Shown here: piece after piece, positions 28,124 to 54,665 of the stretch | Position numbering within the stretch: position 1 is the stretch's first letter | How the letters are laid out: the number at the start of each line of letters is the position of its first letter | NCBI GenBank assembly: GCA_934097015.1 | Contig: CAKONF010000002.1 | Coordinates: forward strand, 4,214-68,213 | DNA length: 64,000 nt | Reading direction: 5' to 3' | Source: an uncultured Bacilli bacterium | Lineage (GTDB): Bacteria > Bacillota_I > Bacilli_A > RF39 > UBA660 | The notes under the pieces: generated by a model | What the model was told of the DNA's origin: nothing | The model's database searches: none | The model's input: the letters and a program-made list of their open reading frames with translations, nothing else | Translations under genes and position numbers: made by a program

Positions 28124-29383
28124 TTAGAAAATTAATAACTGTTGACCTATTGTTAGAGAATTATTTATTAGATTATTTAATTCTTTTATTTTTTCTACGG
28201 TTGTGTTATTATCTTTTGCTATACTCCATAATGTGTCTCCTTTTTTTACTATATATGTATTTGTTATAGATGATGGTATTTTTATTAATTGGCCTATTGA
28301 TAATGTATTTGATGTTAAATTATTTAATGATTTTATCTTATCTGGTGTTGTATTATACTTATTTGCGATACTAAATAAAGTATCTCCTTCTTTTACTGTA
28401 TAGAAGTCATAGTCTTCTGTGATAAAATCTGATTCACTTTTTCTAATTTTTAATGTTTGACCTATTGATAGTGTGTTTGATGTTAAATTATTTAATTTTT
28501 TTAATTCATCTGCTGTTAAATTATATTTATTTGCAATTGCGTATAGTGTATCGCCTTTTTTTACTGTATAAGTGTTTACAGTATTTTCTTCTGTTGTGCC
28601 CGGTAATAGAAGTACTTGTCCAATACTAAGTGTATTTGTAGTCAAATTATTTAATTTTTTTATATCATCTACTGAAACACCATATTTTGAAGCAATACCA
28701 TATAAAGTTTCTCCTTTTGAAATAGTATGAGTATTTGGTAGATCTGTACTAGTTCCTGGTATTTTTAATACTTGACCGATTGAAAGATTGTTTGATGTTA
28801 AATTATTTGTTGTTTTTAATTTATCTACTGTTGTATCATATTTTTTTGCTATAGAATACAGTGAATCTCCTTTTTTTACTGTATATGTATTTGATGTTGA
28901 TGGTGTTGGAGTTGGTGTTTCGGTCGTGTTATCATTTGATGGTAGTTTAAGTTTTTGTCCTATTGATAATGAATTTGAAGTTAGATTATTTAATTTTTTT
29001 AATTCATTTACATTAGTACCATATTTATTTGCGATACTCCATAATGAATCACCTTTTTTTACTATGTAGTATCCAGTTTGTTCGTATGGAATGTTTTTAT
29101 AATCTAACACCGCTTCTATAACTGCTTCTGCATAATCTTTGTAGTTATTTTTTAATTTTTCGGCATCTTTTGCATTATCTAAAAAACCATATTCAACTAT
29201 AACAGTTTCTGCATTTGGAGTATTTCTTAACATATAATAATAATCTTTTGATGTATCACTTGGTAATCTACGTTGATAATATTTTCTTACTAGTTGTCCT
29301 TTTTCTGAAAGTCCATTTAATATTTTACTAGCAAGTTTATCATTATTTCTAAGAGCATAGATTACTTCAGCACCTTCGGCACC
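28124..29383 (-). pseudogene. 3' portion of an interrupted N-acetylmuramoyl-L-alanine amidase (Amidase_3 C-terminal half plus six LysM repeats)
   Basis: The frame is open from 29383 (GAEGAEVIYALRNNDKLASKILNG...MLRNTPNAETVIVEYGFLDN...), immediately after a TGA at 29384-29386. Six copies of the G[DE][ST]L[WYF]xIA...LNNLTSNxLSIGQ LysM unit follow. Confidence 0.85.
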
Positions 29384-29466
29384 TCATAAGTTTAGTAGCC
29401 ATTGTTTATTATTTACTAGCATTCCACAATTGTTCCGTTTGCGGTATAAAAAGTATATTTATTTTT

Positions 29467-30774
29467 TTAATTTATTATTTTTTGAATATTTTCTTTAAAT
29501 GTTTTATCTGGTTCTATTTGTGGAATATAATGGTGCATATCTCTCGCTCTTTGTTGCTTTCTAGTATATTCATTATCCACGTTTTCAAAATTCCAATATG
29601 TTCTATATGCCTTACCTATATCAAGATACTCATTTTCTAAATATGAGTTTAATTTAGTTAAAAAACCTGAGAATGTATATTTGTCATCTATTTTAAAATT
29701 TAATAATTTAGAGTAATTATTTGCGGTTATACCAACATCATCTTTTATTTTTGCTATATATCTGCTATAATTTCCATGCATTAATTCAGTATAAAACAAT
29801 AAATCCGTATATTTTAAGATCAACAAAAACGTAACAATATAACATTGCTGTTCAGTCCACTTTTCATCCTCAGAAGTTTCTTCATTATTATAAAGTTTAT
29901 ATTTAGATACAAATTCATTAAAAATCTTATTTGAGTCTCTTAACGAAATATTTAATATTTGAAACATTTCAGATATCTTCTTAATTATTTTATCTAAATT
30001 ATAAATATTAGAAGTATCAATCGTTTCATAAAATCTTATAGACAATAAATTATATTGATAATCAAAAAACTTACTAAAATACTTTTCGCTATCCATTTCT
30101 TGACCAAAAATTGTTTTTGCAGATTCTTCAAGTTGTAATTTATCTACAGCTATTATAAATATGCAGTTTTCAACATCAAAGAAATGTTTAATAATTTCTA
30201 AAGTGTCTATAGCAAAGCTTGGTTTACATCTATCTAATTCATCAACAATAAATATTTGCGGTTCTTTACTACAACATTTTTTTAATTTTGTTTCAATTTT
30301 CTTTTTACACGAAACAAACTCATCAAAATCCTTTTTGTAACATTCGTTTTCTATCCCCATGATATTATCTTTTATATCATTTAAATCAACATCATATTTC
30401 TTTTTATAGAAACCATTAATCATAGCATATAAAGATACTAAAATACCTTTACCAAAATTACTGGTAAGTTTAACTAATTTATCTAATTCTTTACCCAATT
30501 TTAATTTATTCTCCATTGATGCAAAAAAAGGTATGTATGGCGTTTCATAAAAATCATATTCATAAGCATTATAATTTAAAAATAAATTCATATTTTCAGA
30601 TTCAATTATTTTTTCTTCTAATTCATTTAAAAATGTACTTTTTCCAGAACCCCATGCACCGTTTAATAAAATAACTAATCCATTTTTACTATTTTCCTTG
30701 TAATCTTCTCTTTTTCTTATTATTTCCAATAAAACATCAACATCAACTTGTCTTGAAACCTTATTCATCTTCAT
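29467..30774 (-). CDS. KAP family P-loop NTPase
   Basis: VILLNGAWGSGKSTFLNEL (Walker A) and QIFIVDELDRCKPSFAIDTLEIIKHFF (the characteristic KAP Walker B block). Confidence 0.8.
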   Translation of the reverse strand: MKMNKVSRQVDVDVLLEIIRKREDYKENSKNGLVILLNGAWGSGKSTFLNELEEKIIESENMNLFLNYNAYEYDFYETPYIPFFASMENKLKLGKELDKLVKLTSNFGKGILVSLYAMINGFYKKKYDVDLNDIKDNIMGIENECYKKDFDEFVSCKKKIETKLKKCCSKEPQIFIVDELDRCKPSFAIDTLEIIKHFFDVENCIFIIAVDKLQLEESAKTIFGQEMDSEKYFSKFFDYQYNLLSIRFYETIDTSNIYNLDKIIKKISEMFQILNISLRDSNKIFNEFVSKYKLYNNEETSEDEKWTEQQCYIVTFLLILKYTDLLFYTELMHGNYSRYIAKIKDDVGITANNYSKLLNFKIDDKYTFSGFLTKLNSYLENEYLDIGKAYRTYWNFENVDNEYTRKQQRARDMHHYIPQIEPDKTFKENIQKIIN

Positions 30775-30809
30775 ATGATCACTCCTTATAGCTTTTTATT
30801 ATATCATTA

Positions 30810-32465
30810 TTATTTGTTTTTTCCAACTCTGCCATAAGGATTTCTTATTTTATTTTCATCAATATAAATAAATTCTATTTGAGGTATAACATCATACTTA
30901 AACTTGATAGTAATATTTCTATCTTTATCTATTATTATCTTATCTATTAGAGCTTCTATTAACTCTCTTTTTGGCTTAGTTAAATCTAATAATTCTTTAA
31001 TCTTTTTAATGTAATTTGGTAATATACTTTGATTATTTCTTGAAGTATATTTTTTTAATTCTTCTTCATCTATTCTTTCAACAATTTGTTTTAATTTTAA
31101 TTCATATGAACTAGCCAATTCTTTATATACATTAGCAGATATTACTCCATCACACCTATCGTTATACAACATAGATATTTTATTAGTAATCTTTTCTTTT
31201 TCTAATTTTAAACCTTTTATAACTTCATCTATATTTTCTTTTTCTTTATGAATATTCTTTGTTATTTCATTATTTAATTTCTCTAAATCCAATTCATTAA
31301 CTAATTCAGATACGACATTATTAATCTTCTCTAATATTTGTTTTTCTAAATAGTTATATGGAAAGAAATGAGAATAACATCTACCTCTAATAGGATCTCT
31401 TGAATATCTATTACAATTAATAGACCAATAATCTTTATTTCTTCTATAAAGTACGGTTAATCGATTACCACATTCTTTACAAAATAATTTACCTTCTAAT
31501 ATCCTTTTTTCTCTTTTTGTTTTTATTTCATAATTTCTTGTTTTTCTTTTTCTTAAAATATTAACATAATTAAAGGTTTCTCTATCCACTAAAGCTTCAT
31601 GAGTATTTTCAACTATAGTCCATAACTTTTCATCAAGTGTTATTTTCTTCTTTGATTTATAATTAACTTTAGTTTGAACATGTTGCACCATATCACCAGT
31701 ATAAATTCTATTTGATAGTATCTTTGTAACTGTTGTAATATTCCAAGTATCTCTATTAATAAGTTGTGATGAATAAGAAGTCTTTTTATAGCTACTTGGA
31801 GTTGGCACTTTCATTTCATTTAGTTTATTTGCTATTTCAGTAGGTCCAACTCCATTAGCTCTTAATTTAAATATTTCTTTCACAATCCAATCTGTTTCTG
31901 GATTAGGTATTAGATGACCTTTATCTTCCGGATCTCTCATATAACCAAAACTAGGTAAACTCCCAACAAATTTCCCATTTAATCTTTTTTGATTTAATAC
32001 TGCTCTAATTTTAACTGAATTTTGTTTACTATAATAATCATTACAAGCAATAATAAATGTAGATGAATCATTACTTGCTTGTTCTTTAAATGTATCAACT
32101 GATTCCGATATAGAAATAAATCTAATATTATTCTCTGGGAAAAATGTTTCTGTATAATATCCGGTCATAACGTGGTCTCTTCCAAATCTAGATAAATCTT
32201 TAACTATTACACAATTTATCTTTTTGCTTTTTATATCTTCTAGCATTTTTTTAAATGCTGGTCTATCAAAATCAGTTCCAGAAAATCCATCATCAACATA
32301 TTCTCCAACTAGATTAAAATTATTACTATTTACATAACTTCTTAATAATTCTTTTTGATTAATTACACTTTCACTATCAGATTCATATTTTTTATCTTTG
32401 TCTTCTTGAGATAATCTTATATAGATTCCAGTATTGAAATCTTTATCAGTTAAGTTATTATTCAT
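30810..32465 (-). CDS. large serine recombinase (integrase)
   Basis: Resolvase catalytic domain (GIYIRLSQED, YVDDGFSGTDFDRP, VKDLSRFGRD), a recombinase domain, a Cys-rich zinc ribbon (CKECGNRL...CNRY...RGRCYSH) and a coiled-coil C-terminus. 551 aa. Confidence 0.9.
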   Translation of the reverse strand: MNNNLTDKDFNTGIYIRLSQEDKDKKYESDSESVINQKELLRSYVNSNNFNLVGEYVDDGFSGTDFDRPAFKKMLEDIKSKKINCVIVKDLSRFGRDHVMTGYYTETFFPENNIRFISISESVDTFKEQASNDSSTFIIACNDYYSKQNSVKIRAVLNQKRLNGKFVGSLPSFGYMRDPEDKGHLIPNPETDWIVKEIFKLRANGVGPTEIANKLNEMKVPTPSSYKKTSYSSQLINRDTWNITTVTKILSNRIYTGDMVQHVQTKVNYKSKKKITLDEKLWTIVENTHEALVDRETFNYVNILRKRKTRNYEIKTKREKRILEGKLFCKECGNRLTVLYRRNKDYWSINCNRYSRDPIRGRCYSHFFPYNYLEKQILEKINNVVSELVNELDLEKLNNEITKNIHKEKENIDEVIKGLKLEKEKITNKISMLYNDRCDGVISANVYKELASSYELKLKQIVERIDEEELKKYTSRNNQSILPNYIKKIKELLDLTKPKRELIEALIDKIIIDKDRNITIKFKYDVIPQIEFIYIDENKIRNPYGRVGKNK

Positions 32466-32943
32466 TTTATATCCTTTTACTTAAATGGGTGTTAAAACAA
32501 ATGAATGATAATATCATAATAAAATTATTGCAAATCATTATTTAAATGATTCTCCTTTTGTTCTTTAATTATCTCTTTAATAAGATATTGTAAAATAAGA
32601 TCTTTAAACGAAATGTTATTCAAGTAGGCTCCTTCCATAATTAAACCACCTATTTAAATTTATGTTTGTATTTATTATTTTTGAATTTTTTTCATATATA
32701 TATCTACTTTCTTTCTTTTTACATTAGTATTACTAATAATTTTATAGAATTATTTATTATATTATTATTGAACCGAATGTCCTTTGAGCGTAAAAAAAAC
32801 ATCTAACTCTTTAAAAAAAATTTTCTAGTAAGTCAGATGTAAACTTTTCTGTATTAATATAAATTTTTCTTTTTTTGTGCTTTTCGATGCTTTTTTGTGC
32901 CGAATGGTATTATTGTTGAAATTATTTGAAGATAAATTATATA

Positions 32944-35900
32944 CTAAAATTTACTACTTGAAATATTAAAGAATTTATTAAAAAAGCTTAATAATTTATC
33001 TATAACATTATTTTTCTTTTCTTGCCTATCATTTGTAGGCGTAAACATGTTCATAGGTGGAAGAATTGCTGATACTTCAGTACCATTTGTTTCTACTCTT
33101 CCTTGTTCAAATGATTTTTGAATAAAATTGTACGTTTCTTCTTTGTTAAGATTTTCTTCAACAATTATTTTATCTAATTCTTCTTTCTTTTTGCTATCCA
33201 TAAATGATTCAAAATCAGCATATACATTTGAATCTTGATCTAATGATTCAATAAATGACATAATTAAATCTTTCTTATTTCTTAAATCTGGACTTGCCAT
33301 GATTGTCTTTTGAATAGTTACAAGAATTTCTTTATCTTCCATGTTGCTATCATGGTATTTCTTAACTAACCCTAAGATATAATCAATATTAACTTCTATA
33401 GATTTAATTAATTCCATTTCAAATACTACATCTTCAGTAACATCAGTTTTTTCTTGCTTAGCTTTATTTCTAAATTCATTATACAGTTCAATATAGATAC
33501 TATGATAATCTTGCTTATCTCTTTCACTAATTAACTCTTCATTATTGAATTCATCAAATGATGATAATATATTGGTTACTTTTAATATTGCACCATAAAG
33601 TTTTATAAACTCTTTTTGTTCTGTCTCACTTTGCATTAACTCACCTGGAATAAATTTAGAAGTCAAATTTTCAACTAATGTCTTGTATCCTTCGAATATT
33701 TTGCCATTCTCATCTTCATATCCATAATAGTAGTCTTTATATGATTTTAATAATACAATGCCACGTGCGTTTTCATCCCCAAATTTAGCAAGTGCTTCAT
33801 TAAGCCTATCTTCTAAATTTCTAAATGAAACTATATTACCATATGTTTTTACACTATTTAAGATTCTATTAGTTCTTGAGAACGCTTGAATTAATCCATG
33901 CCATTTTAAATTCTTATCAACCCATAATGTATTTAATGTTTTTGCATCAAAACCTGTTAAAAACATATTAGCAACGATTAATATATCTATTTCTCTATTT
34001 TTCATTCTTAGAGATACATCTTTATAGTAATTTTGAAATTTTTCTGATGATGTATCATAACTTGTTCCAAACATATTATTATAATCTTTAATAGCATTTT
34101 CTAAAAATGTTCTATCATCTGTACTTAATGCTTCTGTTGATTCAGAGTTTTCATCAATTACTCCATCTTCTCCATTAACACCATAAGAATATATTATTGC
34201 TACTTTAAGATTACTCTTTTTTATATCTAATTGTTTCTTAAATTCAGCATAGTATTCTTTAGCCATTTTAATGTTGGATACAGCAAACAATGAGTTAAAT
34301 CCATTAATATTCTTCTTAGACTTAATTTCTTCTGCATCTTGTTTTTTAGCTACTGCAGAAACATTATCTAAAGTTGAATAAACATAACTTTCAGATGTCT
34401 TAGTTTTTGTACTAAAATGCTCTATTATATAATCTGTAATCAGAGAAATTCTAATTTGGTTATCAAATAGTTTTTCTTCATCAATATTATATACTTTTTC
34501 ATCTTGAACACCCTCACGAATATCAATTCTTCCAACATATTCATATCTAAATGGTAATACATTCTTATCAGCAATAGCATTTACTATTGTATAAGTATGT
34601 AATCTTTCTCCAAAAATTTGTTCTGTTGTTTCAGAGATACCTTTAATAGTTCTAGCATTCTCTGGAAATATTGGAGTTCCAGTAAATCCAAATAAATAAT
34701 ATTTATTAAACTTCTTAATAATAGCTTTATGCATATCTCCAAATTGAGATCTATGACATTCATCAAATATAAATACTACATGTTTATTAAATACATCACT
34801 GTTCTCATTTTTCTTGATAAATTGTGATAATTTTTGAATTGTAGTAATAATAATCTTAGTACTTGGATCATTTAATTGTCCTTCTAATATTTTTGTTGAG
34901 GTATTAGAATTAGCTGCTCCTTCTTTAAATCTGTCGTATTCTTTCATTGTTTGATAATCTAGGTCTTTTCTATCTACAACGAATAGTACTTTATCAATAA
35001 AATCTAATTTCCTAGCAAGTTGTGAAGTTTTGAACGAAGTTAATGTTTTTCCAGAACCCGTTGTATGCCAAATATAACCACCTGATTTTAAAGTTCCATA
35101 AAACTTATTATTATATGCAATATTAATTCTATTTAAAATCTTTTCAGTAGCAACTATTTGATAAGGACGCATTACTAATAAATCTTCTTCAGAAGTAAAT
35201 ACACAATATTTAGTTAATGTATTTAATAACGTATGTTTAGTAAAAAATGTTCTGGCAAAATCAATTAAATCAGTAATACCATTATTTTTTTGATCTGCCC
35301 AATATGAAGTAAATTCAAATGAGTTTGACTTCTTTTTCTTTTGATTATTTATATGAAACTCTCTTGTAGTATTTGAATAATACTTAGTTAATGTTCCATT
35401 TGATATAACAAATATTTGAACAAAGTTATATAATCCTGATCCTGCCCAGAAAGAATCTCTTTGATATCTTTCTATTTGATTAAAAGCTTCTCTTAAATCT
35501 ACTCCTCTTTTTTTTAGTTCTACATGAACTAAAGGTAGTCCATTTACTAAAATAGTTACATCATATCTATTATCATGTTTTCCATCATTATTAACATACT
35601 GATTTAATACTTGAAGACTATTATTATGAATATTATTCTTATCTATTAAATAGATATTTTTCTTCTCATCTGAATCAAGAGTTATTTCTTGTTTATAATC
35701 TTCTTGAATTAATCTTGTCTTTTCAATAATATAATCATTTTTATTTGCTATTACTTTAGTGAAAAAACTATCCCATTCTCCATCACTAAAATGATAATTA
35801 TTAAGTTTTTCTAATTGTTTTCTTAAGTTAAGAATTAATTCATCTTCAGAGTTAATATTTAGTCTTTCATAACCCTGTTCAACTAAAGTTTTAATTAATT

Positions 35901-36012
35901 CTTTTTCTAAAGCATCTTCACTTTGAAAAGATGTTGTTACTCTATTTAATACTTTATACTCAGTAAGTACTGTTGAATTATCATTTTCACTTATTAATCC
36001 TATATTAGTCAT
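32944..36012 (-). CDS. hsdR: type I restriction enzyme R subunit
   Basis: WHTTGSGKTLTS (motif I) and FIFDECHRSQ (DEAH-type motif II). 1022 aa, in an operon with hsdM and hsdS. Confidence 0.92.
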   Translation of the reverse strand: MTNIGLISENDNSTVLTEYKVLNRVTTSFQSEDALEKELIKTLVEQGYERLNINSEDELILNLRKQLEKLNNYHFSDGEWDSFFTKVIANKNDYIIEKTRLIQEDYKQEITLDSDEKKNIYLIDKNNIHNNSLQVLNQYVNNDGKHDNRYDVTILVNGLPLVHVELKKRGVDLREAFNQIERYQRDSFWAGSGLYNFVQIFVISNGTLTKYYSNTTREFHINNQKKKKSNSFEFTSYWADQKNNGITDLIDFARTFFTKHTLLNTLTKYCVFTSEEDLLVMRPYQIVATEKILNRINIAYNNKFYGTLKSGGYIWHTTGSGKTLTSFKTSQLARKLDFIDKVLFVVDRKDLDYQTMKEYDRFKEGAANSNTSTKILEGQLNDPSTKIIITTIQKLSQFIKKNENSDVFNKHVVFIFDECHRSQFGDMHKAIIKKFNKYYLFGFTGTPIFPENARTIKGISETTEQIFGERLHTYTIVNAIADKNVLPFRYEYVGRIDIREGVQDEKVYNIDEEKLFDNQIRISLITDYIIEHFSTKTKTSESYVYSTLDNVSAVAKKQDAEEIKSKKNINGFNSLFAVSNIKMAKEYYAEFKKQLDIKKSNLKVAIIYSYGVNGEDGVIDENSESTEALSTDDRTFLENAIKDYNNMFGTSYDTSSEKFQNYYKDVSLRMKNREIDILIVANMFLTGFDAKTLNTLWVDKNLKWHGLIQAFSRTNRILNSVKTYGNIVSFRNLEDRLNEALAKFGDENARGIVLLKSYKDYYYGYEDENGKIFEGYKTLVENLTSKFIPGELMQSETEQKEFIKLYGAILKVTNILSSFDEFNNEELISERDKQDYHSIYIELYNEFRNKAKQEKTDVTEDVVFEMELIKSIEVNIDYILGLVKKYHDSNMEDKEILVTIQKTIMASPDLRNKKDLIMSFIESLDQDSNVYADFESFMDSKKKEELDKIIVEENLNKEETYNFIQKSFEQGRVETNGTEVSAILPPMNMFTPTNDRQEKKNNVIDKLLSFFNKFFNISSSKF

Positions 36013-36016
36013 TACT

Positions 36017-36649
36017 TCACACTTCCCATCTATACCATTTCTTATAAAATTCCCAATCTTTTTTTAATTTACACATTTGCATATTGCTCATTAAAGTGTT
36101 AATTCTATTTCGTTCATCACAAATAGAATCTAATGTTTCATCAATTAAAGTCTTCGCATTTTTTATATTTTTTTTATTCTTTTTGCCAATATAATCAAGT
36201 GCAAAAAACACCTTCGCGTCAGTTACATTGTACGCATCTAATAAATCAAGATGTTTTGCATAAAAACTGATGTCATTCTTTTCTTTTATTAAATTATTAT
36301 AGGAATTAATTCTAAAATAATATTCATCATAAACTTTTAAATAGTTTTTATTATTTTTAATTTTATTTAAATTGTCTTTAAAACCATGTAGCCATAAATA
36401 ATAATCTCTTATATTATTTAAAAAAATTGTATCTTGTCTTTCACTCTCATTTTTGTAATCAAATATTAATATACATAATGACACAAATGCTCCTGTAATA
36501 GCATTAATTAATATTGTTTCACAAATATCTATTTGATTTGGTGTAGGATGAAATATCTCAACAAAAATCAAAATAATGATTAAGGTAGTAATCAATAAAA
36601 ATAACCAATACATAGAATTTTTTATTTTATTCATACTGTATATCCTCAA
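36017..36649 (-). CDS. 2-TM membrane protein of unknown function embedded between hsdS and hsdR
   Basis: Hydrophobic helices (WLFLLITTLIIILIFVEIF, AITGAFVSLCILIF) followed by a ~140-aa helical soluble part. The likely start, ATG at 36634, overlaps the hsdS stop, and the gene ends 4 nt before the hsdR start. Confidence 0.6.
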   Translation of the reverse strand: MRIYSMNKIKNSMYWLFLLITTLIIILIFVEIFHPTPNQIDICETILINAITGAFVSLCILIFDYKNESERQDTIFLNNIRDYYLWLHGFKDNLNKIKNNKNYLKVYDEYYFRINSYNNLIKEKNDISFYAKHLDLLDAYNVTDAKVFFALDYIGKKNKKNIKNAKTLIDETLDSICDERNRINTLMSNMQMCKLKKDWEFYKKWYRWEV

Positions 36650-37772
36650 AATTTAATAATTTATTTCTATAATATTCATATTGTTTTCTTCTTAATTCTA
36701 TTTCTGCAGGAAGACCGATTGAAATATCACTTATTAATTTTTCAAACTTATCCAATATACCGACTATTCGATTCTGTTCTTCAATCGGAGGAATTATTAA
36801 ATCAAGTTGCTTAACTGTTGGAGTGGTCAATTGTGGAATGCTACCTCCTGATTGCTTAAATTCGTGTCCATATAATGCATAATGTAAATATTTAGCTGAA
36901 ATTATTTTTTCATCTGGAATAAGAGTTATCAAACGAATTATTGGAGTAAACTTGCCATATCTTACTTCGTGATAACCTATTGTGCCTCTTGCAGCTATAG
37001 TTACACATGATTGAACATCTACTTTATAATTTTTACTATATCCATATATAGCATTCTCTCCTACGCCATTTGATATAACCGGATATTTATAATCATCTTG
37101 CGGTTTAGAAATTCCTTTTATTGTATCTTCAGGTACATCACCGCCTGCAGAAATATTTTTGCATACTTCAGTTATATTATATTTTTTATAATTATCATTC
37201 TTTTTATCCAAGAGTATGACACGCCAAAACTCATATTGACTCTTTCTCGTTTCTATCTCCGCTTCTATCTCCGCTTCTAGCTCGCCAAATTTATCAAGAA
37301 TTCGTACTATTTCCTCTTGTACTTCTAATGGAGGTACAGGTACTTTTAGTTTTTCTATCACCCTTCTATCTAATGTAGGAATACCAGCTTTTCTAACTCT
37401 ACCAATAAAATATTTTTCATTATTCTTTAAATAGTGATACAAAAACCTATTAATAAATAAATCATTATGTTCTAAGCAATAGCAACCATCTGAAGACCAA
37501 AAATTATTTTTTGAATATCCAACTACACCTGCAGATGCTCCAACATTTATTATCATAACGGTATCACTAAAACGATTATATTTATTATAATAACCTAAAG
37601 GGTTCAAACCACCATGATATACAGGATAATTTGCTTCAAAATTTAATTTTTTTATTGTTAATCTCTTTCCTCTTAATACCTTTGAAAAGCTTGAAATTGC
37701 TTTATATTTAACTCCATTAGGACACAACTCTTTTATTAAATCGTTTATCTTACTCATGATAATCAACCTCAA
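36627..37772 (-). CDS. hsdS: type I R-M specificity subunit
   Basis: Two target-recognition halves separated by conserved helices: PPLEVQEEIVRILDKFGELEAEIEAEIETRKSQYEFWR and PPIEEQNRIVGILDKFEKLISDISIGLPAEIELRRKQYEYYR. Confidence 0.9.
   Translation of the reverse strand: MRLIIMSKINDLIKELCPNGVKYKAISSFSKVLRGKRLTIKKLNFEANYPVYHGGLNPLGYYNKYNRFSDTVMIINVGASAGVVGYSKNNFWSSDGCYCLEHNDLFINRFLYHYLKNNEKYFIGRVRKAGIPTLDRRVIEKLKVPVPPLEVQEEIVRILDKFGELEAEIEAEIETRKSQYEFWRVILLDKKNDNYKKYNITEVCKNISAGGDVPEDTIKGISKPQDDYKYPVISNGVGENAIYGYSKNYKVDVQSCVTIAARGTIGYHEVRYGKFTPIIRLITLIPDEKIISAKYLHYALYGHEFKQSGGSIPQLTTPTVKQLDLIIPPIEEQNRIVGILDKFEKLISDISIGLPAEIELRRKQYEYYRNKLLNFEDIQYE
37251..37286. repeat. 12-bp tandem repeat (2 perfect copies plus 1 degenerate) inside the hsdS central conserved helix
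   Basis: TTCTATCTCCGC TTCTATCTCCGC TTCTAGCTCGCC on the plus strand encodes (L)EAEI-EAEI-E on the minus strand. Confidence 0.85.
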
Positions 37773-39345
37773 GTTCTTTAATTATTTCTTCTAGTTCTTC
37801 TCTAATTTGTTGTTGTCTAGGTACAATTTCAGCAAGCTTTCTATTTACTTCTTCTATATCGATTTTTTTATCTTCAGTATTTGTTTTTACATATGAATTA
37901 ACTGAGATATTATAATCATTATCTTTGATTTCTTCATAAGTTGCTAAATAGGATTTATTTTCAATTGATTTTCTATTCTTTAAGAAACTAATTATATTAT
38001 TAATGTTTTCTTCTGATAATTTGTTTTTATTAGATTTTCTAACATATTCACTAGAGGCATCTACAAATAATATATTATTATCTAATTTATTTTTCTTTAA
38101 TACTAAAATACAAGTTGCAATTGATGTACCAAAGAATAAATCAGAAGGTAATTGAATGACAGTATCAACAAAGTTATTATCAATCATATATTTTCTAATC
38201 TTTTGCTCTGCTCCACCTCTATAAAGAACTCCAGGAAATTCAACTATTGCAGCAGTTCCTTTTGGAGAAAGCCATGACAACATATGCATAGTAAAAGCTA
38301 AGTCTGCTTTTGATACTGGTGCCAACACACCAGCTGGAGCAAATCTTTCATCATTTATTAATAGTGGATTAGACTTGCCTGCCCATTTTATTGAATAAGG
38401 GGGATTAGATACTATTGCATCAAATGGTTCATCATTCCAATGTACTGGATGTATTAATGTATCTCCTCTTTCAATACTAAAGTTATTATAATTGATATTA
38501 TGTAAGAACATATTTATTCTAGCTAAGTTGTATGTTGTAAGATTTATTTCTTGACCGAAAAATCCTTCTCTTACATTTTCTTTTCCAAGTATCTTCGCAA
38601 ATTTAAGTAATAATCCACCTGAACCACAAGCAGGATCATATACTTTATTAACAGATGTTTTATCCATTATTACTATTTTAGCAAGTAATTCTCCAACTTC
38701 TTGTGGAGTAAAAAATTCTCCACCTGATTTACCTGCTGATGATGCATACATTGTCATTAAAAATTCATAAGCATCTCCAAATAAATCTATCTTATTTTCT
38801 TCATAATCTCCAAAATTCAATTCTCCTATTGCACTTAATAATTTAACAAGTTTTTCGTTTCTTTCATCAACTGTATTACCCAATTTATTATCTATGGTAA
38901 AATCATCAAATAACCCTTTAACATCATTCTCTGATGCAGTTCCTCTTGCTGATGATTCAATATTATTAAATATATTAGAAATTACTACATTTAAATTTTC
39001 ATTTTTATCGGCATTTTTTCTAACGTTACAAAATAATTCACTAGGTAAAATAAATAATCCTTTTTCTTCTAATATTTGTGTTTTTCCCAATAATGCTTCA
39101 TCATCAGATATATTTCTATATTTAAAATCTTCAATACCTACTTTTCTTTGATTTTCATTAACATAATTTTCTATATTTTCTGAAATAAATCTATAAAATA
39201 ATAGACCTAATACATATTGTTTAAAATCCCATCCATCTACTGAACCTCTTAAATCATTTGCTATTTTCCAAATAGTTTTATGCAATTCTTCTCTTTCAAT
39301 CTCTTTTTTATTATTCATTAACTTCCACACTCCTAGTACTTTCAT
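37750..39345 (-). CDS. hsdM: type I R-M N6-adenine DNA methyltransferase subunit
   Basis: HsdM N-terminal domain (LHKTIWKIANDLRGSVDGWDFKQYVLGLLFYRF), DPACGSGG (SAM-binding motif) and VSNPPYSIKW (NPPY motif). The true start is probably the internal MNNKKEIE. Confidence 0.92.
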   Translation of the reverse strand: MKVLGVWKLMNNKKEIEREELHKTIWKIANDLRGSVDGWDFKQYVLGLLFYRFISENIENYVNENQRKVGIEDFKYRNISDDEALLGKTQILEEKGLFILPSELFCNVRKNADKNENLNVVISNIFNNIESSARGTASENDVKGLFDDFTIDNKLGNTVDERNEKLVKLLSAIGELNFGDYEENKIDLFGDAYEFLMTMYASSAGKSGGEFFTPQEVGELLAKIVIMDKTSVNKVYDPACGSGGLLLKFAKILGKENVREGFFGQEINLTTYNLARINMFLHNINYNNFSIERGDTLIHPVHWNDEPFDAIVSNPPYSIKWAGKSNPLLINDERFAPAGVLAPVSKADLAFTMHMLSWLSPKGTAAIVEFPGVLYRGGAEQKIRKYMIDNNFVDTVIQLPSDLFFGTSIATCILVLKKNKLDNNILFVDASSEYVRKSNKNKLSEENINNIISFLKNRKSIENKSYLATYEEIKDNDYNISVNSYVKTNTEDKKIDIEEVNRKLAEIVPRQQQIREELEEIIKELEVDYHE

Positions 39346-39389
39346 TTACAATTATATCATGAATTTTGTTTTTTTGGGGTTTAATTCCA

Positions 39390-39417
39390 GCAAAAAAGAA
39401 GAAATTAATCTTCTTCT
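39390..39417 (-). terminator. intrinsic terminator after the Fic gene, separating it from the hsd operon
   Basis: Minus-strand AGAAGAA-GATTAAT-TTCTTCT followed by TTTTTT. Confidence 0.6.
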
Positions 39418-39542
39418 GTATGTCTATTTTTTATTTATAGTATTCAACATTATAATTTTGATTGTTATCAAGTATTAGTTCTAAATTAAATTTCTATTTA
39501 TTAGCATCTCTTATTATTTAAAATTTATAAAAATACTATAAA

Positions 39543-40085
39543 TTAATTATTTTTATCAAACAATTCTTGAACAATTAAATCCTTTGAATATAGATTATTG
39601 TTCTTACCTAATAATAAATTTTCATAAAATTTAACTAAATAACTACTATCTTCTTTTATATTTAAATAATTATTAAAATAATTACTTCTTACTAAAGCAT
39701 TTCTAAAATAAACTGATTTATCTTTAAATAAACTATTATCAACTTTATAACCCAAACTAATTAAATACTTTTCAATAAATAAAGCTGTAGTTCTAGTATT
39801 TTCTTCTCTAAAAGGATGGACTTGCCATATACTGGAAGAAAACTTAGTTATGTTATTAATAACTTCAACTATATTCATTTTTTTATAATTTTTTTCTACC
39901 TCTTCTATTGTTAAATTACCTTCTACTTCTTCCACTAATAATCTTTCTAAGTATTTAGAAGGTTTTAAATTATCAACTTCTTGTAATCCAATAGCCATAT
40001 CCCATTGCAACTGTTTTTCATAATTACTAGATTTATAGCTTTCTTCATATTCATTAGCACTCGAATCTAATTCTTTTTCGTCCAT
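39543..40085 (-). CDS. small Fic/Fido-fold protein with a degenerate active-site motif
   Basis: HPFREENTRTTALF, versus the canonical HPFxxGNGRxxR. 180 aa. Confidence 0.6.
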   Translation of the reverse strand: MDEKELDSSANEYEESYKSSNYEKQLQWDMAIGLQEVDNLKPSKYLERLLVEEVEGNLTIEEVEKNYKKMNIVEVINNITKFSSSIWQVHPFREENTRTTALFIEKYLISLGYKVDNSLFKDKSVYFRNALVRSNYFNNYLNIKEDSSYLVKFYENLLLGKNNNLYSKDLIVQELFDKNN

Positions 40086-40129
40086 AATTTAAACCTCCTA
40101 ACTATATATAATCATAACATATATTTGAA

Positions 40130-42187
40130 TTAAATAATCACTAACTCATCATAAATATTTTGTAAAACATTCATGCTATACACAAATATTGGTGGAACAA
40201 TTTTAGAAGATGAATGATTAAATGAATTTATAACAAAATTATATGTGTTATAAAATGATAACAATTTATCGTTATTCAAATATGGAATCAAATCACCAAT
40301 ATTCTCATAATCCATATTTACTTCATTTACTACTTTTGTTTCGAATATTCTTCTAATTTTCATGCCAAGTAAGTATTTATAAATTAAAATATAACAGACA
40401 TCTTTTTTATCAACCAAATTAATATTACCCGAATTAGATTTTACTTTAATATTAATATCATCAAAACTATTTGTTATATTTTCAAAAACTTCTGATACCT
40501 TCTCATTATCATTATCATTTAAATTAAATTTAAAAATAGTATTTATTGAATTCAATAAATCTAATACAATAATGTCCTTTTTAACATGATTAATTGAGTT
40601 TGAAATTATATGATATATATTATCAATTTTAAATGCCAAATTTATAATATCTTGCTCATCATTATATTTTATAAGCAATCTTTCCATGTTAATTTCATTT
40701 CTTAACATAGATGCAAAAGTTATTAAAGAGTATTTATCAACTAGCTTATCACAAATCTTTAATATTAATCCATAATCATATGGATTAACATCCATTTTTG
40801 ATAAAAGTTTATAACTATCATTATAAATCAATATTTCATTGGAATTATTCAATTTATCTAACCAATATATATTAAATTTTTCTAATGTGTTTTTATTAAT
40901 AGAATCAAACAAATATATAGCATACATACTATGTGAAAAAATATTAAATGTATCAATGTCACTAATCGAAGAATTGACTAACTTTACAATTATATTTATT
41001 GAATCTTGTACATATATATCATCATAGCTATCAAAAGGATCATCTACAATAATATTTAATTTGCCAGCAGTCTTTTTTTGATAAACCAATATGTCAAAAT
41101 ATAAAAATTTAAAAAAATTCTGTTCTGATTTAGACATGTTTTTGTATTTAACTTCTGAATTTGTAATTTGTAATTTGCCATCTTCTATTCTTATCTTAAT
41201 ATCACTATTCTTATAAACAGAATGCTGTTCAATTTTATTTTTTATATATTCATATGCTTCTGAAGTTTCCTCTAATCTAAAATCTTTTATTTCTCTCATT
41301 ATAACGTCTAATTCTTTCTTACTTTCTAAATAAGTTTCAATAATCTTTTCATCATAAAAATCTTTTAAATAATAAAGAATTGAACTTTGGATTAATGAAA
41401 TAATTTTATTTTTTTCTTCTTCATATAAACTAGATATTAAAAATTCACTAACGACACTATTTACTTTTTCATCAGAATTTTCTAGATAATAAAGTAATGA
41501 TTGTTTTAATGTATCATCAATAGTACCATTCTCGACACTATTCCTTATTAATTCTATAGATTCGGATGTTATATCATTATAGCATACAGGACATTTTTCA
41601 TATAGTTCACGATTATCCAATATTTTCTTTTGTAAATTATAAATTTCAATATTAACCATACTTTTTATTTTTTCTGGAATTATAATAATTCTATCTTTTA
41701 TTAAAATATCCATTATTTCAAAAAAGTTTAATAAACCAGTTTTAGGCTTTTTAAATAAAGTTTTAATCTCTTCTTCTGTATATAAAGGTTCTTCAAAATC
41801 TCCTTTATATGTAAAGACATCATTATTTATAAATTCGGTGATATAACAAAAATCTATAAATGCTTTTTTAGTATCAGTTGAACATATATCTTTAATATTC
41901 TTCTTGACAGATAGTTTCTTTTTAGAATTTTCATTTTTATTTTTATATTTATTATATTCTTGAACTTTAGGCATTATTTCAAATGAATTATCATCTGTAA
42001 ACTCCTGAATTGACATATTTGAAAGTAAATCATCATCAAATAAAAGTACATTTTCATCACAATCTTCATAATACTTTTTTAATGCCTTTGATACTTGTGT
42101 TTTTCCAATTTTATTAGGTCCATAAAAAATATTATATTTATTATTTATCATATTGATCATATTGCCGTTTTCTAATTGTAAATTCAT
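40130..42187 (-). CDS. AAA_13/ABC-type ATPase with a PrrC/RloC-like C-terminal region (putative anticodon nuclease)
   Basis: Walker A IFYGPNKIGKT, CxxC CPVCYNDI, Walker B/D-loop LNIIVDDPFDSYDD and H-loop-like NIFSHS. The C-terminus has IRRIFE (R-x3-E) and, 46 residues on, INSFNHSSS. Adjacent to the type I R-M operon. Confidence 0.6.
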   Translation of the reverse strand: MNLQLENGNMINMINNKYNIFYGPNKIGKTQVSKALKKYYEDCDENVLLFDDDLLSNMSIQEFTDDNSFEIMPKVQEYNKYKNKNENSKKKLSVKKNIKDICSTDTKKAFIDFCYITEFINNDVFTYKGDFEEPLYTEEEIKTLFKKPKTGLLNFFEIMDILIKDRIIIIPEKIKSMVNIEIYNLQKKILDNRELYEKCPVCYNDITSESIELIRNSVENGTIDDTLKQSLLYYLENSDEKVNSVVSEFLISSLYEEEKNKIISLIQSSILYYLKDFYDEKIIETYLESKKELDVIMREIKDFRLEETSEAYEYIKNKIEQHSVYKNSDIKIRIEDGKLQITNSEVKYKNMSKSEQNFFKFLYFDILVYQKKTAGKLNIIVDDPFDSYDDIYVQDSINIIVKLVNSSISDIDTFNIFSHSMYAIYLFDSINKNTLEKFNIYWLDKLNNSNEILIYNDSYKLLSKMDVNPYDYGLILKICDKLVDKYSLITFASMLRNEINMERLLIKYNDEQDIINLAFKIDNIYHIISNSINHVKKDIIVLDLLNSINTIFKFNLNDNDNEKVSEVFENITNSFDDINIKVKSNSGNINLVDKKDVCYILIYKYLLGMKIRRIFETKVVNEVNMDYENIGDLIPYLNNDKLLSFYNTYNFVINSFNHSSSKIVPPIFVYSMNVLQNIYDELVII

Positions 42188-42203
42188 GTTTTCAACTCCT
42201 CTG

Positions 42204-44477
42204 CTAAATTATAGATTTATAAAAATTTTCAACAATATTTATTGTTTCTAATGTATCATTATCAACATTGGGATTTATATAATTATCTTTGTTAAAGGCA
42301 TCATCTATGTAATCTTCAAATTCTATCATACTAAATGATTTAAGATTCATTTCCATTTCATTAAGTAAATTTATACTCATACCATCACTTTCTAAATTTT
42401 TTATTATTAAAATTTTTATATCATTATATTCACTATATAATATTTCTTCTGCACAGGTTTCTTTTGAATCTTGAGAAAAAATATAATATTTAATTTCTGA
42501 GTCAATTAAATCATCAATTTCATTAATACTACATTTAATTATTTGATTTTGAAGTTTTATTGAAAATTTTGAAAAATTTTTAATAATAATCTTAGTTATA
42601 TTATTATTAAATCCATCAATTGAAAAGGAAATATATTTACCAATGTTACTTGTAAAACTCAATCTTTCCAAAATTTCATTTTCTGCAATAAAATTTTCTC
42701 TTAAAAAACAATCTTCATTATATGAAAATGAATTTTTTTCAGAAAATATTTTATCCTTTATATATGTTGCAAATTCATCGTCTTTTAATATTGAAGCATC
42801 CATTTTTTTTAGGATTTCAAAATTTGTATAATCTAATTCAATTACTTTCTGTTTCCTTTTCTTTATGTCAATTTTATCATTTAGTAGTATATTATCTAAT
42901 TCTTCCTTATTTTCAACTTTATCAATAAAAATTATCATATCATTTGATTTCTTAAATTTGTTAATGCAATAATCCATTACTGAAGGATCATAAAATTTGC
43001 AAATAAAATTATTTCCACTAGCATAAATGCTTACGAATGATTTTTCCAATTTTTTAAGACTTATTTTAAATTCTTCCTCCGTAATATTAAAATGAGATAT
43101 TATTCTATATAAACTATCAACCTTTACTTCATAATTGTTTTTGTACACACTTTTTAAATATATTGCTTTTATAATGAGCCTCTCATTATTTTCTAAGTTA
43201 TTGTTGTATGAATGATCATATATTAAATAAGGATTATCTAGATTTTCAATAAATTTATCAATATAATTATCATCAAAATTGATAAAATCCAACCTTGTCA
43301 TTAACTCTACTAAACGTGGATTATAATTTTTATGATATATAATTCTATATATATTTAATGAATTAGTAATTTTTTCAATATAAAAATTACCTTTTTCAAA
43401 TAAATTATACATACACTTTTGGGGGATGTTTGATAATTTTAAATGCTTTATTAATATACGAGCTTTTTCTGCATAAGTAAACTGAGATGTTTCTATTACA
43501 AATGGTTTTAATCCTAATCTACCAATTTTATCATACTTTTGATTAACATCATTAAAAAAACTAATTCTGGAATTTATGATAATTTTTAAATTTCTGTTTG
43601 TATTTTCAAGTAAAGAGACAATTTCTGAATCAGAAATTGTAGACATAAAATCTATATTATTTGATCCAAATATATCATCAATAAATAATATAAATTTTTC
43701 TTCATCATTATACTCTTGTAAAATATCCTTTAAATTTTTATTAGGAGAATACAATAATTTATAACCAATTTCTAAGTACTTTGCTACCAAAAATTTAGAA
43801 TTATAACTTTTGCCAACTCCTGGATTACCAACAAGTATTAAAAGATTTTTATCTTCTAGATGTTTTATACACTTAGCTGTTATACTTGTTGGAACAAATT
43901 TTTTACAAGTATTTTCTATATCTCTTAAAATTGTTTCTTGTTGATATTTACTATATCCTCCAAATAGTTTTCTTAAATCATCTAATTTAACTGGTAAAAT
44001 GATAGAAGATTTCAGAAAATTTAATACATCATCTATTTTTTCTTCTTGATTTTCTAACAATTTTATAATTTTTTCAAAATTTATTATATCACCATCAATA
44101 GAAAAATTTTTGTATTGACTGAAAGTTTTGATTCTTGGCTTATATGATGAATCTAATAAAAAAAATTTCAGTTTAATAGTTGAATTAAAATTTAATGTTT
44201 CTTTTATCTTCCTAGAATTTGTTTCACTTGTAATTTGAATCCCTATTTTGTTTTTTTCATCTATCAAATCAATATAAGGATAATTGATTTTTTTTAAATT
44301 GCAGTTTTCATAATTACCTATTTCCATAATTTCTAGTAATTTAAGTACAAAATTTTCAATAGATATGTTAATATCTGTATATGCAAAATCATTATTTATT
44401 TTGATAATTGATTCTAGCCAAGAAAAATACTGTATTATGGTTTTAATTTTTTCCTCATTTGATAGCATATATATCAC
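42204..44477 (-). CDS. large P-loop NTPase (STAND/AAA-like) with a SMEK-like N-terminal domain
   Basis: Walker A LILVGNPGVGKSY and Walker B FILFIDDIFG. The N-terminus YTDINISIENFVLKLLEI...INYPYIDLIDEKNKIGIQITSETNSRKIKETL matches my recollection of the SMEK domain pattern. Ends 16 nt upstream of the next gene. Confidence 0.6.
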   Translation of the reverse strand: MIYMLSNEEKIKTIIQYFSWLESIIKINNDFAYTDINISIENFVLKLLEIMEIGNYENCNLKKINYPYIDLIDEKNKIGIQITSETNSRKIKETLNFNSTIKLKFFLLDSSYKPRIKTFSQYKNFSIDGDIINFEKIIKLLENQEEKIDDVLNFLKSSIILPVKLDDLRKLFGGYSKYQQETILRDIENTCKKFVPTSITAKCIKHLEDKNLLILVGNPGVGKSYNSKFLVAKYLEIGYKLLYSPNKNLKDILQEYNDEEKFILFIDDIFGSNNIDFMSTISDSEIVSLLENTNRNLKIIINSRISFFNDVNQKYDKIGRLGLKPFVIETSQFTYAEKARILIKHLKLSNIPQKCMYNLFEKGNFYIEKITNSLNIYRIIYHKNYNPRLVELMTRLDFINFDDNYIDKFIENLDNPYLIYDHSYNNNLENNERLIIKAIYLKSVYKNNYEVKVDSLYRIISHFNITEEEFKISLKKLEKSFVSIYASGNNFICKFYDPSVMDYCINKFKKSNDMIIFIDKVENKEELDNILLNDKIDIKKRKQKVIELDYTNFEILKKMDASILKDDEFATYIKDKIFSEKNSFSYNEDCFLRENFIAENEILERLSFTSNIGKYISFSIDGFNNNITKIIIKNFSKFSIKLQNQIIKCSINEIDDLIDSEIKYYIFSQDSKETCAEEILYSEYNDIKILIIKNLESDGMSINLLNEMEMNLKSFSMIEFEDYIDDAFNKDNYINPNVDNDTLETINIVENFYKSII

Positions 44478-44723
44478 CTCTAATTAAAAAATAAGCAGTA
44501 TCCATCTTAAAAAGATTAAATACTGCTCATCTTTATAAATATATATTATCATACTTCGACATTTTTTTCAGTATTTTCAGGACAATTTACTATTTTTTTA
44601 GTTAAAAAACAAAAAAATAGCATTTATTCTTCAAATAAACACTATTTCTACAATATTTAATATCTTTCTAGATATTTATACTATCTAGCTCGATTGCTTA
44701 AATACAGCCGTCTTAATACCCAA

Positions 44724-45038
44724 TCAAATTATGTAATGGTAAGTAAACTCGCCACCTCCTGCATTTATGTGATTAGATATAATTAGTACATCTTTATCAT
44801 TTCCAAATTTTGATAAAGCTACACCTGGTCTATCATCACTAGTCAAAGTTATATCACTATCGCGTGTTAAAGCAACTGGAATACCCAACTCTTTAAATCT
44901 ATCATACATATATTTACTAATTTCTAAAGTTAAATTTTTCTCAATTATACCATTACCTGAAGCTCCTTGATCTTCTCCGCCATGTCCAGCATCAATAACA
45001 ATACCTTTTAAAGCTCTTGTATAGTTCATTTTAATCAC
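44724..45038 (-). pseudogene. 5' portion of the interrupted amidase (Amidase_3 N-terminal half), ending in element-derived codons
   Basis: MNYTRALKGIVIDAGHGGEDQGASGNGIIEKNLTLEIS...LIISNHINAGGG, then EFTYHYII* read from the element end. No signal peptide. Confidence 0.85.
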
Positions 45039-45181
45039 CTAAAATATTTTATGATAAATTACTTATAGTGTGATAATTATAGTTTTATATTGTACATTGA
45101 TTAATTAACATAATTTAATTTGAATATTTTTAATTGAAATTAATTCGTTTATAAATATTTAATAATTATAATATTTGTTTT

Positions 45182-46054: not shown

Positions 46055-46252
46055 CTATTTCTTATCATTTTTTGAAATAGCAGCAACCGAAATAATTATT
46101 CCTAATAAATTTAATCCTATACTTATACCTAGTAATAATCCTGATATAAAATCATTAAGATTAGTATAATTTTTACTTAAATAACTTTGTAAAAAATATA
46201 ATACCTCACCTACTATTATTAATATAATTCCTATTTTTGTTTGTTTTTTCAT
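46055..46252 (-). CDS. small 2-TM membrane protein
   Basis: 65 aa with two hydrophobic helices and Lys-rich termini. Confidence 0.45.
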   Translation of the reverse strand: MKKQTKIGIILIIVGEVLYFLQSYLSKNYTNLNDFISGLLLGISIGLNLLGIIISVAAISKNDKK

Positions 46253-54108: not shown

Positions 54109-54592
54109 CTAACAACCCTTAAAAGGGTCTTCGTATTCTCTTACACTTCTTTTATCTTGTATCATATCTTCTGTTTCTTGCTCTCTTATATATTTTTTTA
54201 TTGTATTTTTATTTAATCCTACCGTACTCACATAATATCCTCTAGCCCAAAATGTTCTTTGTCCATACTTGTATTTTAAATTCGCATGATTTTCAAATAT
54301 CATCAATGCACTTTTTTCCCTTTAGATATCCCATAAATTGTGATACACTAAGTTTAGGCGGAATCTTTAAAAGCATATGTATGTGGTCAACGCATGCATG
54401 AGCTTCTATGATATCCACCTCTTTATATTCACATAATCTTCTTAGAATTATTCCTATATCTCGGCGAAGTTTACCATATATGGCTTTTCTTCTAAACTTT
54501 GGGATAAATACTATGTGATAAAGACAATTATATTTAGTATGAGATAATTGACTTTCGTCAATATCTCTGCTCTTTGTTTTTGATTTCAACAT
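54109..54592 (-). pseudogene. tnpA: IS200-type Y1 transposase TnpA, split by a frameshift in an A6 run
   Basis: MLKSKTKS...YHIVFIPKFRRKAIYG...HACVDHIHMLLKIPPKLSVSQFMGYLKGK, then a frame change at 54312-54317, then SALMIFENHANLKYKYGQRTFWARGYYVSTVG in the 54109..54306 ORF. Confidence 0.8.
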
Positions 54593-54665
54593 AAAAATCT
54601 CCTCCTGTTTTTTATATTTGATCGGCAAATCATAGTATATTATAACAGAAGGAGATTTTTATGTT
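54588..54665 (-). promoter_or_regulatory. 15-bp long-range stem sequestering the tnpA Shine-Dalgarno and start codon
   Basis: AACATAAAAATCTCC (54588-54602) is the exact reverse complement of GGAGATTTTTATGTT (54651-54665). On the mRNA the 3' arm contains GGAG and the ATG. Confidence 0.7.

Follow-up and report, generated by a model that had tools for sequence, protein, structure and literature searches.

A defence-carrying serine-recombinase element splits a LysM amidase gene of an uncultured gut bacterium and may be excised during spore formation

When a mobile element lies in the middle of a conserved coding region, one may ask whether the gene is lost to its host or only held in reserve until the element leaves. 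This question is raised by a 64,000-nt stretch of contig CAKONF010000002.1 (assembly GCA_934097015.1, an uncultured Bacilli bacterium), termed here the window, to which all coordinates refer unless they follow an L-number, i.e., the label of a related genome or metagenome locus. In the window a gene for an Amidase_3 protein with six LysM repeats is interrupted by an inserted element (29383..44755, all genes on the minus strand) of 15,373 bp, measured as the distance between equivalent positions of the two junction cores, and the interruption is confirmed at nucleotide resolution. The original prediction, made from this sequence, held that the element is moved by a serine recombinase, that its excision would rejoin the amidase frame and that the whole could be a developmental switch. 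The split gene, the recombination sites and the kind of element can now be described plainly, and programmed excision in spore formation, by which the amidase would be restored, is a reading to which the comparisons presented below give about an even chance.

The N-terminal part of the amidase is found in a minus-strand open reading frame (ORF) at 44724-45038, which begins with MNYTRALKGIVIDAGHGG and ends with ISNHINAGGGEFTYHYII before its stop codon; counted from the ATG, this fragment (44724..45029) consists of residues 1-92 from the host, then eight codons of the element and the stop. The C-terminal part (28124..29383) is the minus-strand frame open from 29383 down to 28124, which starts with GAEGAEVIYALRNN (GAEGAEVIY...) and encodes the remainder of the Amidase_3 domain and then the six LysM repeats. 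In the joined protein Pfam recognises one Amidase_3 domain (residues 10-183 versus profile positions 1-172 of 174) and six LysM domains, so the two pieces are, as had been proposed, fragments of one gene that rejoin in frame, although the product is 510 aa counted from the ATG and not the approximately 515 aa first stated. The intact genes of three close relatives (L010-L012) also encode exactly 510 aa, and alignment with intact homologues, which read ISNHINAGG(G/A)EGAEVIY, shows zero extra residues at the joint and no additional sequence between the two fragments. The truncation is not peculiar to one contig: the 101-aa product of the N-terminal fragment has an exact copy on 19 metagenome contigs, with the element downstream in 10 of the 10 loci shown.

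Both junctions carry a 9-bp core in identical codon phase, TCGGCACCT at 29376..29384 (attR type; AGGTGCCGA on the minus strand) and TCGCCACCT at 44749..44757 (attL type; AGGTGGCGA on the minus strand, invariant in 25 instances), and the two differ by one mismatch. In the attP site reconstructed from the inner ends, a left half-site arm (29390..29403, AATGGCTACTAAAC on the minus strand) and a right half-site arm (44735..44748, AATGGTAAGTAAAC on the plus and GTTTACTTACCATT on the minus strand) are identical at 11 of 14 positions and enclose a 14-nt spacer, so that core positions, common phase and dyad arms stand as originally described. Related left arms are found in L088 (AGTGGAAACTAAAC) and L120 (AGCGGTAACTAAAC), and the half-site pattern ARTGGnnnsTAAAC recurs in both; beyond the core, a search for repeats turned up no long ones, direct or inverted, at the ends of the element. 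The right arm opens an element end that is conserved, over its first ~150 nt inwards from the N-side junction, in different copies and hosts. Just inside the element and downstream of the truncated N-terminal ORF, this end forms an intrinsic-terminator-like hairpin (44606..44649, minus strand) with a 17-bp stem and a U run; the 161-nt element end bearing it folds as RNA with -35 kcal/mol (z = -4.1), and the hairpin is kept in other copies.

Where within the core would the strands be exchanged? The nearest empty sites read GCAGGAGGTGCCGAAGG, which assigns the C variant to attB and the G variant to attP. Since the empty sites have C, the G at the N-side junction derives from attP, and the crossover is inferred to lie left of the core mismatch, within AGGTG. 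The centre of the 14-nt attP spacer (TTATGAG/GTGGCGA) is the GG inside the same AGGTG block; the empty sites and the dyad centre are two independent lines of evidence, and they agree. The original placement of the crossover inside the core is thereby upheld. The predicted excision product, ...HINAGGAEGAEVIY, is the same as the closest intact alleles; with window-specific flanks the predicted rejoined site reads ...CACATAAATGCAGGAGGTGCCGAAGGTGCTGAAGTAATCTATGC..., and the predicted circle (attP) junction ...CAATGGCTACTAAACTTATGAGGTGGCGAGTTTACTTACCATTAC.... The insertion itself is a recombination of attP with attB inside the codons of the conserved HINAGG/xEGAE motif.

Unoccupied sites are present in natural populations. 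Among species-representative genomes, the intact gene is carried by close relatives, deposited as uncultured Bacilli or Tenericutes (e.g., UMGS1124), with 97-99% amino acid identity in L010-L012 and 85% in L014. When the empty loci L010-L015 were compared with the window by blastn, the alignment leapt 15.37 kb between the window flanks, with an overlap of 9-10 bp at the core, and the unoccupied attB equal to the two joined flanks was found in L010-L015, L101, L102, L104, L108 and L109, as the original prediction had anticipated for related genomes. An early idea that the insertion is fixed was dropped, because the 97-99% identical intact proteins exist in the collection; a word-indexed protein search had listed nothing above 82% identity in spite of their presence, and absence from that search is not evidence. 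In L010 (9930-11527), L011 (9956-11523) and L012 (4394-5962) the intact amidase is inverted relative to both flanking blocks as compared with the window, L013 and L014, and in L010 and L012 the stretch that separates the amidase from the orf141 homologue is also longer by ~8 kb; inverted repeats that could account for the inversion were not found at these loci.

What kind of element occupies the site? From the N-side junction inwards, its minus-strand genes encode an NTPase with SMEK_N and nSTAND3 domains (42204..44477; PADLOC candidate PDC-S73), a 685-aa protein with an N-terminal P-loop and without a family match (40130..42187), a 180-aa Fic-like fragment (39543..40085; PADLOC PDC-S72) and a type I restriction-modification (R-M) system (32944..39345) composed of HsdM (37750-39345), HsdS (36627-37772), a 210-aa membrane-type ORF of unknown function (36017-36649) and HsdR (32944-36012). 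Then follow a conserved 37-aa ORF (32525-32638), directly upstream of a large serine recombinase (LSR) of 551 aa (30810..32465; Resolvase, Recombinase and Zn_ribbon_recom domains), and a KAP-family P-loop NTPase (29467..30774; PADLOC PDC-S20). The complete type I R-M system is clustered with PDC-S20, PDC-S72 and PDC-S73, which makes the element a defence island in the sense of at least two clustered systems. Searches of the element proteins with Pfam, PHROGs and PADLOC gave matches of integrase and defence type alone and no phage hallmark gene (capsid, tail, terminase, portal, holin, replication), and no element ORF has a Pfam domain of a relaxase, a coupling protein or type IV secretion. The element is a non-phage, non-conjugative, LSR-moved integrative element with anti-phage defence cargo.

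The original prediction had itself named a reading that would undo it, in which the amidase is the endolysin of a degraded prophage. The amidase has indeed no signal peptide, like an endolysin, and the recombinase matches the PHROG integrase phrog_95 at 7e-99. However, the element is free of phage genes, the closest recombinases among phage and plasmid records share less than 36% identity, over 160 genomes of this uncultured Bacilli lineage have the amidase, with a LytR-family neighbour in the close relatives examined, and housekeeping genes flank the element. The amidase is a conserved chromosomal gene and not a prophage lysin, so that the prophage reading is effectively refuted and scarcely credible. 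Another argument of the original prediction was the common strand of the element and its target; because nearly all genes of the window are on the minus strand, with negative GC skew throughout, this co-orientation is uninformative and carries no weight.

The recombinase has the domains PF00239 (residues 14-165), PF07508 (189-306) and PF13408 (323-382) and the catalytic-serine motif YIRLSQED. Its closest solved relatives are TnpX (E = 3e-27, catalytic domain) and SprA (E = 3.5e-16, full length), and it scores far under the cut-offs of the CcrB and XisF equivalog models. An identical recombinase is present on at least 15 gut-metagenome contigs, and the amidase C-terminal fragment follows it in every locus shown that reaches that far. 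The element is present, among others, in the samples ERZ27287079, ERZ28616384 and ERZ27286990 and in the Hadza sets. With three intact LSR domains, an attP dyad and an unoccupied attB, the assignment to serine-recombinase elements proved right. Could the element nevertheless be an immobilised remnant, whose recombinase or sites are dead and whose target is a permanently split pseudogene? Such a remnant would fit with a directionality factor that is only a candidate (see below), as well as with cargo frameshifts in individual contigs (the 685-aa and SMEK-STAND genes in L004, L005 and L114), but hardly with a recombinase that is full length, has all its domains and recurs unchanged, with conserved att arms, with two intact amidase fragments that show no nonsynonymous excess, or with the same element end in many hosts, and it is regarded as quite improbable. 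As for the frameshifts, the genes split in some contigs (L004:280-2336; L005:263-2319 and 15153-15960; L114:2985-6985) are those for the 685-aa protein, SMEK-STAND or the host orf278/LytR, and they may reflect assembly errors or real cargo decay.

How far does the element travel? A degenerate att-site scan of gut metagenomes revealed 15 N-side junctions in at least seven amidase alleles, with the same element end throughout, in occupied alleles that diverge to ~50% amino acid identity; the same scan found five empty sites, and one allele was seen both occupied and empty. When L-loci were compared with the window, HsdM and HsdR were 95-96% identical in a host whose amidase N-terminal fragment is 54% identical, and the LSR phylogeny does not follow that of the amidase; therefore, transfer between hosts has been recent, and vertical co-divergence of element and host was rejected on the same incongruence. 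Within the species complex, the cluster of split C-terminal fragments, to which the 369-aa gene call from the internal Met of the window fragment belongs, holds 51 distinct sequences and the cluster containing the intact 510-aa gene holds 70, some of them cut at other positions, and split and intact alleles are interleaved in a neighbour-joining allele tree. The element family moves from host to host, natural populations contain occupied beside empty alleles, and the element is clearly mobile, polymorphic and in active spread, not fixed and domesticated.

The cargo is exchanged as well. In L008 (664-5362) AbiTii and an AAA_13 gene lie between HsdS and HsdR, which is the place of the PrrC anticodon nuclease in known systems, in L120 (7125-8090) a 321-aa reverse-strand gene stands where the KAP NTPase would be, and L100 (1665-3977) carries a 770-aa AAA_21 ATPase. 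Moreover, other element ends are joined to the same core in L061 (640-700), L049 (13900-13960), L086 (1100-1160), L087 (100-160) and P0146, for instance ...GGTGGCGA/TAGTCATTGTG in L061 and MNSP/GAEGAE in P0146 (the slash marks the junction), and thus several distinct element types use this attB. The amidase has also a second interruption site, just before His16 of DAGHGG (L013:63-80; L015:9992-10010; L100:4158-6441; L106:3441-5066; P0140, P0145, P0148, P0150). In L091, L100 and L106 a distinct 535-aa serine recombinase (DUF4368) and a DUF4160 protein lie directly upstream of this second site, and in these three loci the amidase is split at HINAGG too, i.e., into three pieces.

Polymorphic presence, intermixed alleles and recent transfer between hosts are what would be expected of an ordinary mobile defence island that knocks out a dispensable gene, is excised sporadically or for transfer and has no developmental coupling, the amidase being lost for as long as the island is resident. 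A conserved coding motif is a common route by which an integrase reaches the same site in many hosts, and redundancy could be provided by a second Amidase_3 gene. The latter (19989-21698), 6 kb from the split gene, encodes a 569-aa protein with CHB_HEX_C_1 and Fn3_assoc domains. An uncoupled island of this kind is a serious possibility, held with less than even confidence, and two further points in its favour, as well as those that it leaves unexplained, are given below.

If the amidase were simply lost, some decay of the split copies might be sought. The substitutions specific to the window amidase are 42 synonymous and 10 non-synonymous; dN/dS between the window gene and intact genes is 0.04-0.06, equal to that of intact genes among themselves, and it is 0.066 between two split alleles of different backgrounds, below that of neighbouring genes. 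All five split C-terminal fragments examined are complete ORFs of 414-417 aa. The split gene shows no decay, a result that fits either recent, recurrent insertion or function retained via excision and cannot separate them.

The link to sporulation comes from the promoter region. Upstream of the amidase lies a sigma-K-type promoter-like motif (45045..45071, minus strand) with AC at 45071-45070, a 16-nt spacer and CATAAAATA at 45053-45045, followed by the Shine-Dalgarno sequence (SD) AGGTGA and then by the ATG at 45029. CATAnnnTA is found at -23 to -28 of the start codon in 57 of 62 amidase orthologues, as compared with 5.9% of random 90-nt windows, and the full AC-N16/17-CATAnnnTA in 44 of the 62 (background 0.5% per 90 nt). 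When the sequences are aligned on CATA, the sole informative upstream position of the logo is a C at -17 (68%, genomic C ~11%), preceded by A. The arrangement AC-16/17-CATAnnnTA is the Bacillus subtilis sigma-K consensus. Of ~1,000 further SD-led ORFs from these loci, only 1.6-2.6% have the motif so placed, and the carriers include a 141-aa Hydrolase_2 (CwlJ-like), CotJB, SpoVIF, a protein with two LysM domains, a 74-aa membrane protein and a BclA_C/collagen-like protein, the last with Pfam hits below curated cut-offs. Outside the amidase, the motif is largely confined to recognisable mother-cell sporulation genes in these genomes, and scans for sigma-70 sites and terminators upstream of the amidase gave no excess over shuffled sequence. 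Because the amidase lacks a signal peptide, as does the mother-cell lysis amidase CwlC, and because its conserved sigma-K-type motif is shared with coat and cortex-lytic genes, it is most likely a late-sporulation, CwlC-like enzyme.

Three window genes have the motif upstream, namely the amidase, the M23 member of an M23-M50 pair and a yfmF-like gene. The M23 peptidase gene (1565-2101) overlaps the following M50 gene (832-1599) in the order of spoIVFA-spoIVFB, and two tandem copies of CATATAATT stand before the pair (2144-2136 and 2123-2115). The SpoIVFA/SpoIVFB-like pair invoked in the original prediction is therefore borne out in domains and gene order, while the SpoIVFB-specific model finds no match on the window M50 gene; it lends little independent weight to the switch idea, even though the M23 gene has the CATA-type motif. 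The yfmF-like gene encodes an M16 peptidase (8064-9338), is paired with a yfmH-like gene (6794-8092) and has CATAATATA ahead of its SD, in the sporulation-type position. As to the host, genomes of the CAG-302 and CAG-1000 families carry orthologues of the amidase, these families belong to order RF39 (PMC7676259), and RF39 has a predicted spore-forming capacity (PMC10868615); the host is probably an uncultured low-GC gut Bacilli bacterium of order RF39.

A related motif stands before the small ORF that precedes the recombinase. The unit at 32525..32664 (minus strand) comprises the CATA-type motif CATAAATT (32664-32657), an SD (32651-32646) and the 37-aa ORF, which is preceded by CATAAATTTAaatAGGTGG. 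The succession of CATAnnnT, 4-6 nt, SD, an ORF of 30-59 aa and the recombinase is present in 8 of the 8 recombinase loci examined outside the His16-site lineage (the window, L088, L070, L065, L050, L074, L085 and the second recombinase of L065), which represent three lineages with dissimilar surrounding sequence, and the relaxed CATA motif has a background of 2.6% among other SD-led ORFs. In an alignment the small upstream proteins have a weak amphipathic motif in common, and sigma-70-like sites before the recombinase are no better than chance when compared with shuffled sequence. At a guess, the 37-aa ORF might encode a recombination directionality factor (RDF).

From these observations the following course of programmed excision can be proposed, in which the element would behave as skin, SPbeta and gin do. 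The element would stay integrated in vegetative cells and in the forespore, where it would supply defence. The 37-aa ORF would be expressed in the terminal mother cell from its CATA-type promoter and act as the directionality factor, and together with it the recombinase would recombine attL with attR, with the crossover at the central GG. The excision would restore the 510-aa frame, and the amidase would then be transcribed from its own sigma-K-type promoter. An island without developmental coupling leaves unexplained why two sites of a single gene have each or together attracted several unrelated LSR lineages, why the target gene has a mother-cell-type promoter motif, why a CATA-type motif is shared by the small-ORF/recombinase units of three lineages, and how split copies stay undecayed despite very strong purifying selection. 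Of the developmental switch as first put forward, the split gene and the in-frame restoration that the predicted excision would bring stand, and the motif statistics are new support for a programmed excision that is plausible.

Several points weigh against programmed excision. The attR core is polymorphic: in L008 (11960-11990) and one other contig GAGGTTCCGAAGG replaces GAGGTGCCGAAGG, and this nonsynonymous GGTTCC variant would, after excision at GG, turn the conserved Gly/Ala into Ser, which agrees better with an uncoupled island. Such an island would be favoured also by the excision product being assembled nowhere: the exact rejoined 510-aa protein, in its Ala and Gly variants, is absent from a collection of 15 billion proteins, and the check for the circular junction proposed at the outset gave 0 exact matches to attP in assembled metagenomes and viral contigs, a weak negative only, as assemblies are not expected to capture a minority product of the mother cell. 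The lack of decay in the split gene is equally explained by recent, recurrent insertion. Pfam and PHROGs scans assign the 37-aa ORF to no recognisable family, its motif is without AC at -35, the CATA box is so near the SD that the predicted transcript starts at or within it, and the His16-site recombinase lineage has no CATA motif. The amidase reaches 89.7 bits with the CwlD equivalog model, for which the cut-off is 221. Finally, we know of no observation of spores for this lineage.

Programmed excision can be extended to a bolder reading, in which the amidase gene is a communal, sporulation-gated docking site for defence islands of uncultured RF39 gut bacteria: several LSR lineages would park at its two motif-coding sites without vegetative cost, each would be excised in the mother cell by a tiny directionality factor, the circles would be released when the amidase that they have restored lyses the mother cell, and sporulation would serve as the route of dissemination. 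Were this true, the sporulation route would explain the spread between distant hosts; the idea is speculative and rather unlikely.

The remaining features of the window belong to its surroundings. The flanks are ordinary chromosome (trmD, lepA, polA, ackA, a LytR-family gene, an ABC transporter and metK). Rfam recognises nothing in the window but a SAM riboswitch (58 bits), which lies upstream of metK (61102-61188) and distant from the element, and a fragment of an IS200/IS605-family transposase is present at 54293-54628. One kb upstream of the amidase there is a 65-aa ORF with two predicted transmembrane segments (46055-46252), holin-like in appearance; since it was found solely within the same species (L011), it was rejected as a conserved holin partner of the amidase.

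If programmed excision takes place, gene-intervening elements reach a new target, a CwlC-like amidase, and a major uncultured human-gut lineage, which for a long time was classed with the Tenericutes; the promoter motif that the genes share is sequence-level evidence for a mother-cell sporulation programme in these bacteria. The locus is also a natural example of anti-phage genes that ride on small recombinase cassettes and are exchanged with them (51 split sequences versus 70 in the intact-gene cluster), and it provides attB/attP pairs of defined sequence for several related serine integrases, along with a candidate minimal directionality factor of 30-59 aa. Even without developmental control, it illustrates how integrases exploit the codons of a conserved motif as a landing site available across a wide range of hosts.

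Whether programmed or plain island, the element belongs to known kinds and is not a new one. The closest counterpart is gin, which lies in gerE of Bacillus cereus ATCC 10987 and is likewise a non-prophage island with serine recombinase genes and an R-M system that interrupts the coding sequence of a mother-cell sporulation gene, the ORF being restored by excision (PMC5595907). Excision of gin during sporulation was shown experimentally (PMC5595907), whereas here it is inferred; the target of gin is a transcription factor, in contrast to a cell-wall amidase of an uncultured RF39-type gut host, and the family described here spreads, with cargo turnover, between hosts whose amidases are ~50% identical. 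SPbeta in spsM (PMC4191935, PMC5499854) resembles the present element in its LSR integrase, SprA being the best full-length solved relative, in the small gene directly upstream of the recombinase and in being still mobile and polymorphic; there, the RDF gene sprB is transcribed from a sigma-E/K promoter and sprA constitutively (PMC5499854). However, SPbeta is a functional phage of 134 kb and not a 15-kb island without phage genes, identity to SprA is low (E = 3.5e-16), and between SprB and the 37-aa ORF similarity is not detectable.

The skin elements in sigK (with SpoIVCA in B. subtilis and with CD1231 and CD1234 in C. difficile) are excised by an LSR to rebuild a mother-cell gene, as is proposed here. 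In the C. difficile skin element the gene of the RDF, CD1234, is read from a sigma-E promoter, with a leader of 14 nt, and that of the LSR from a sigma-A promoter (PMC5025042), and this control logic, with the RDF under a sporulation sigma factor, is the one suggested for the 37-aa ORF. Unlike the horizontally mobile family described here, skin is domesticated and largely fixed; furthermore, the present target is not a regulator, so that sporulation would not be blocked if excision were lost. Integrative defence islands (PMC10121019; bioRxiv 10.64898/2026.01.13.699239) are similarly compact, combine an integrase with several defence systems and swap cargo modules between copies (here L008, L094 and L120), but they mostly use tyrosine recombinases and tRNA or intergenic sites, whereas here an LSR has entered a conserved motif in mid-coding sequence. 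The choice of an autolysin amidase gene as attachment site is paralleled by the pneumococcal PPH090 prophages at the 3' end of lytA (PMC8637289), which differ in being full prophages, in hitting an Amidase_2 target at its 3' end and in standing outside a sporulation context.

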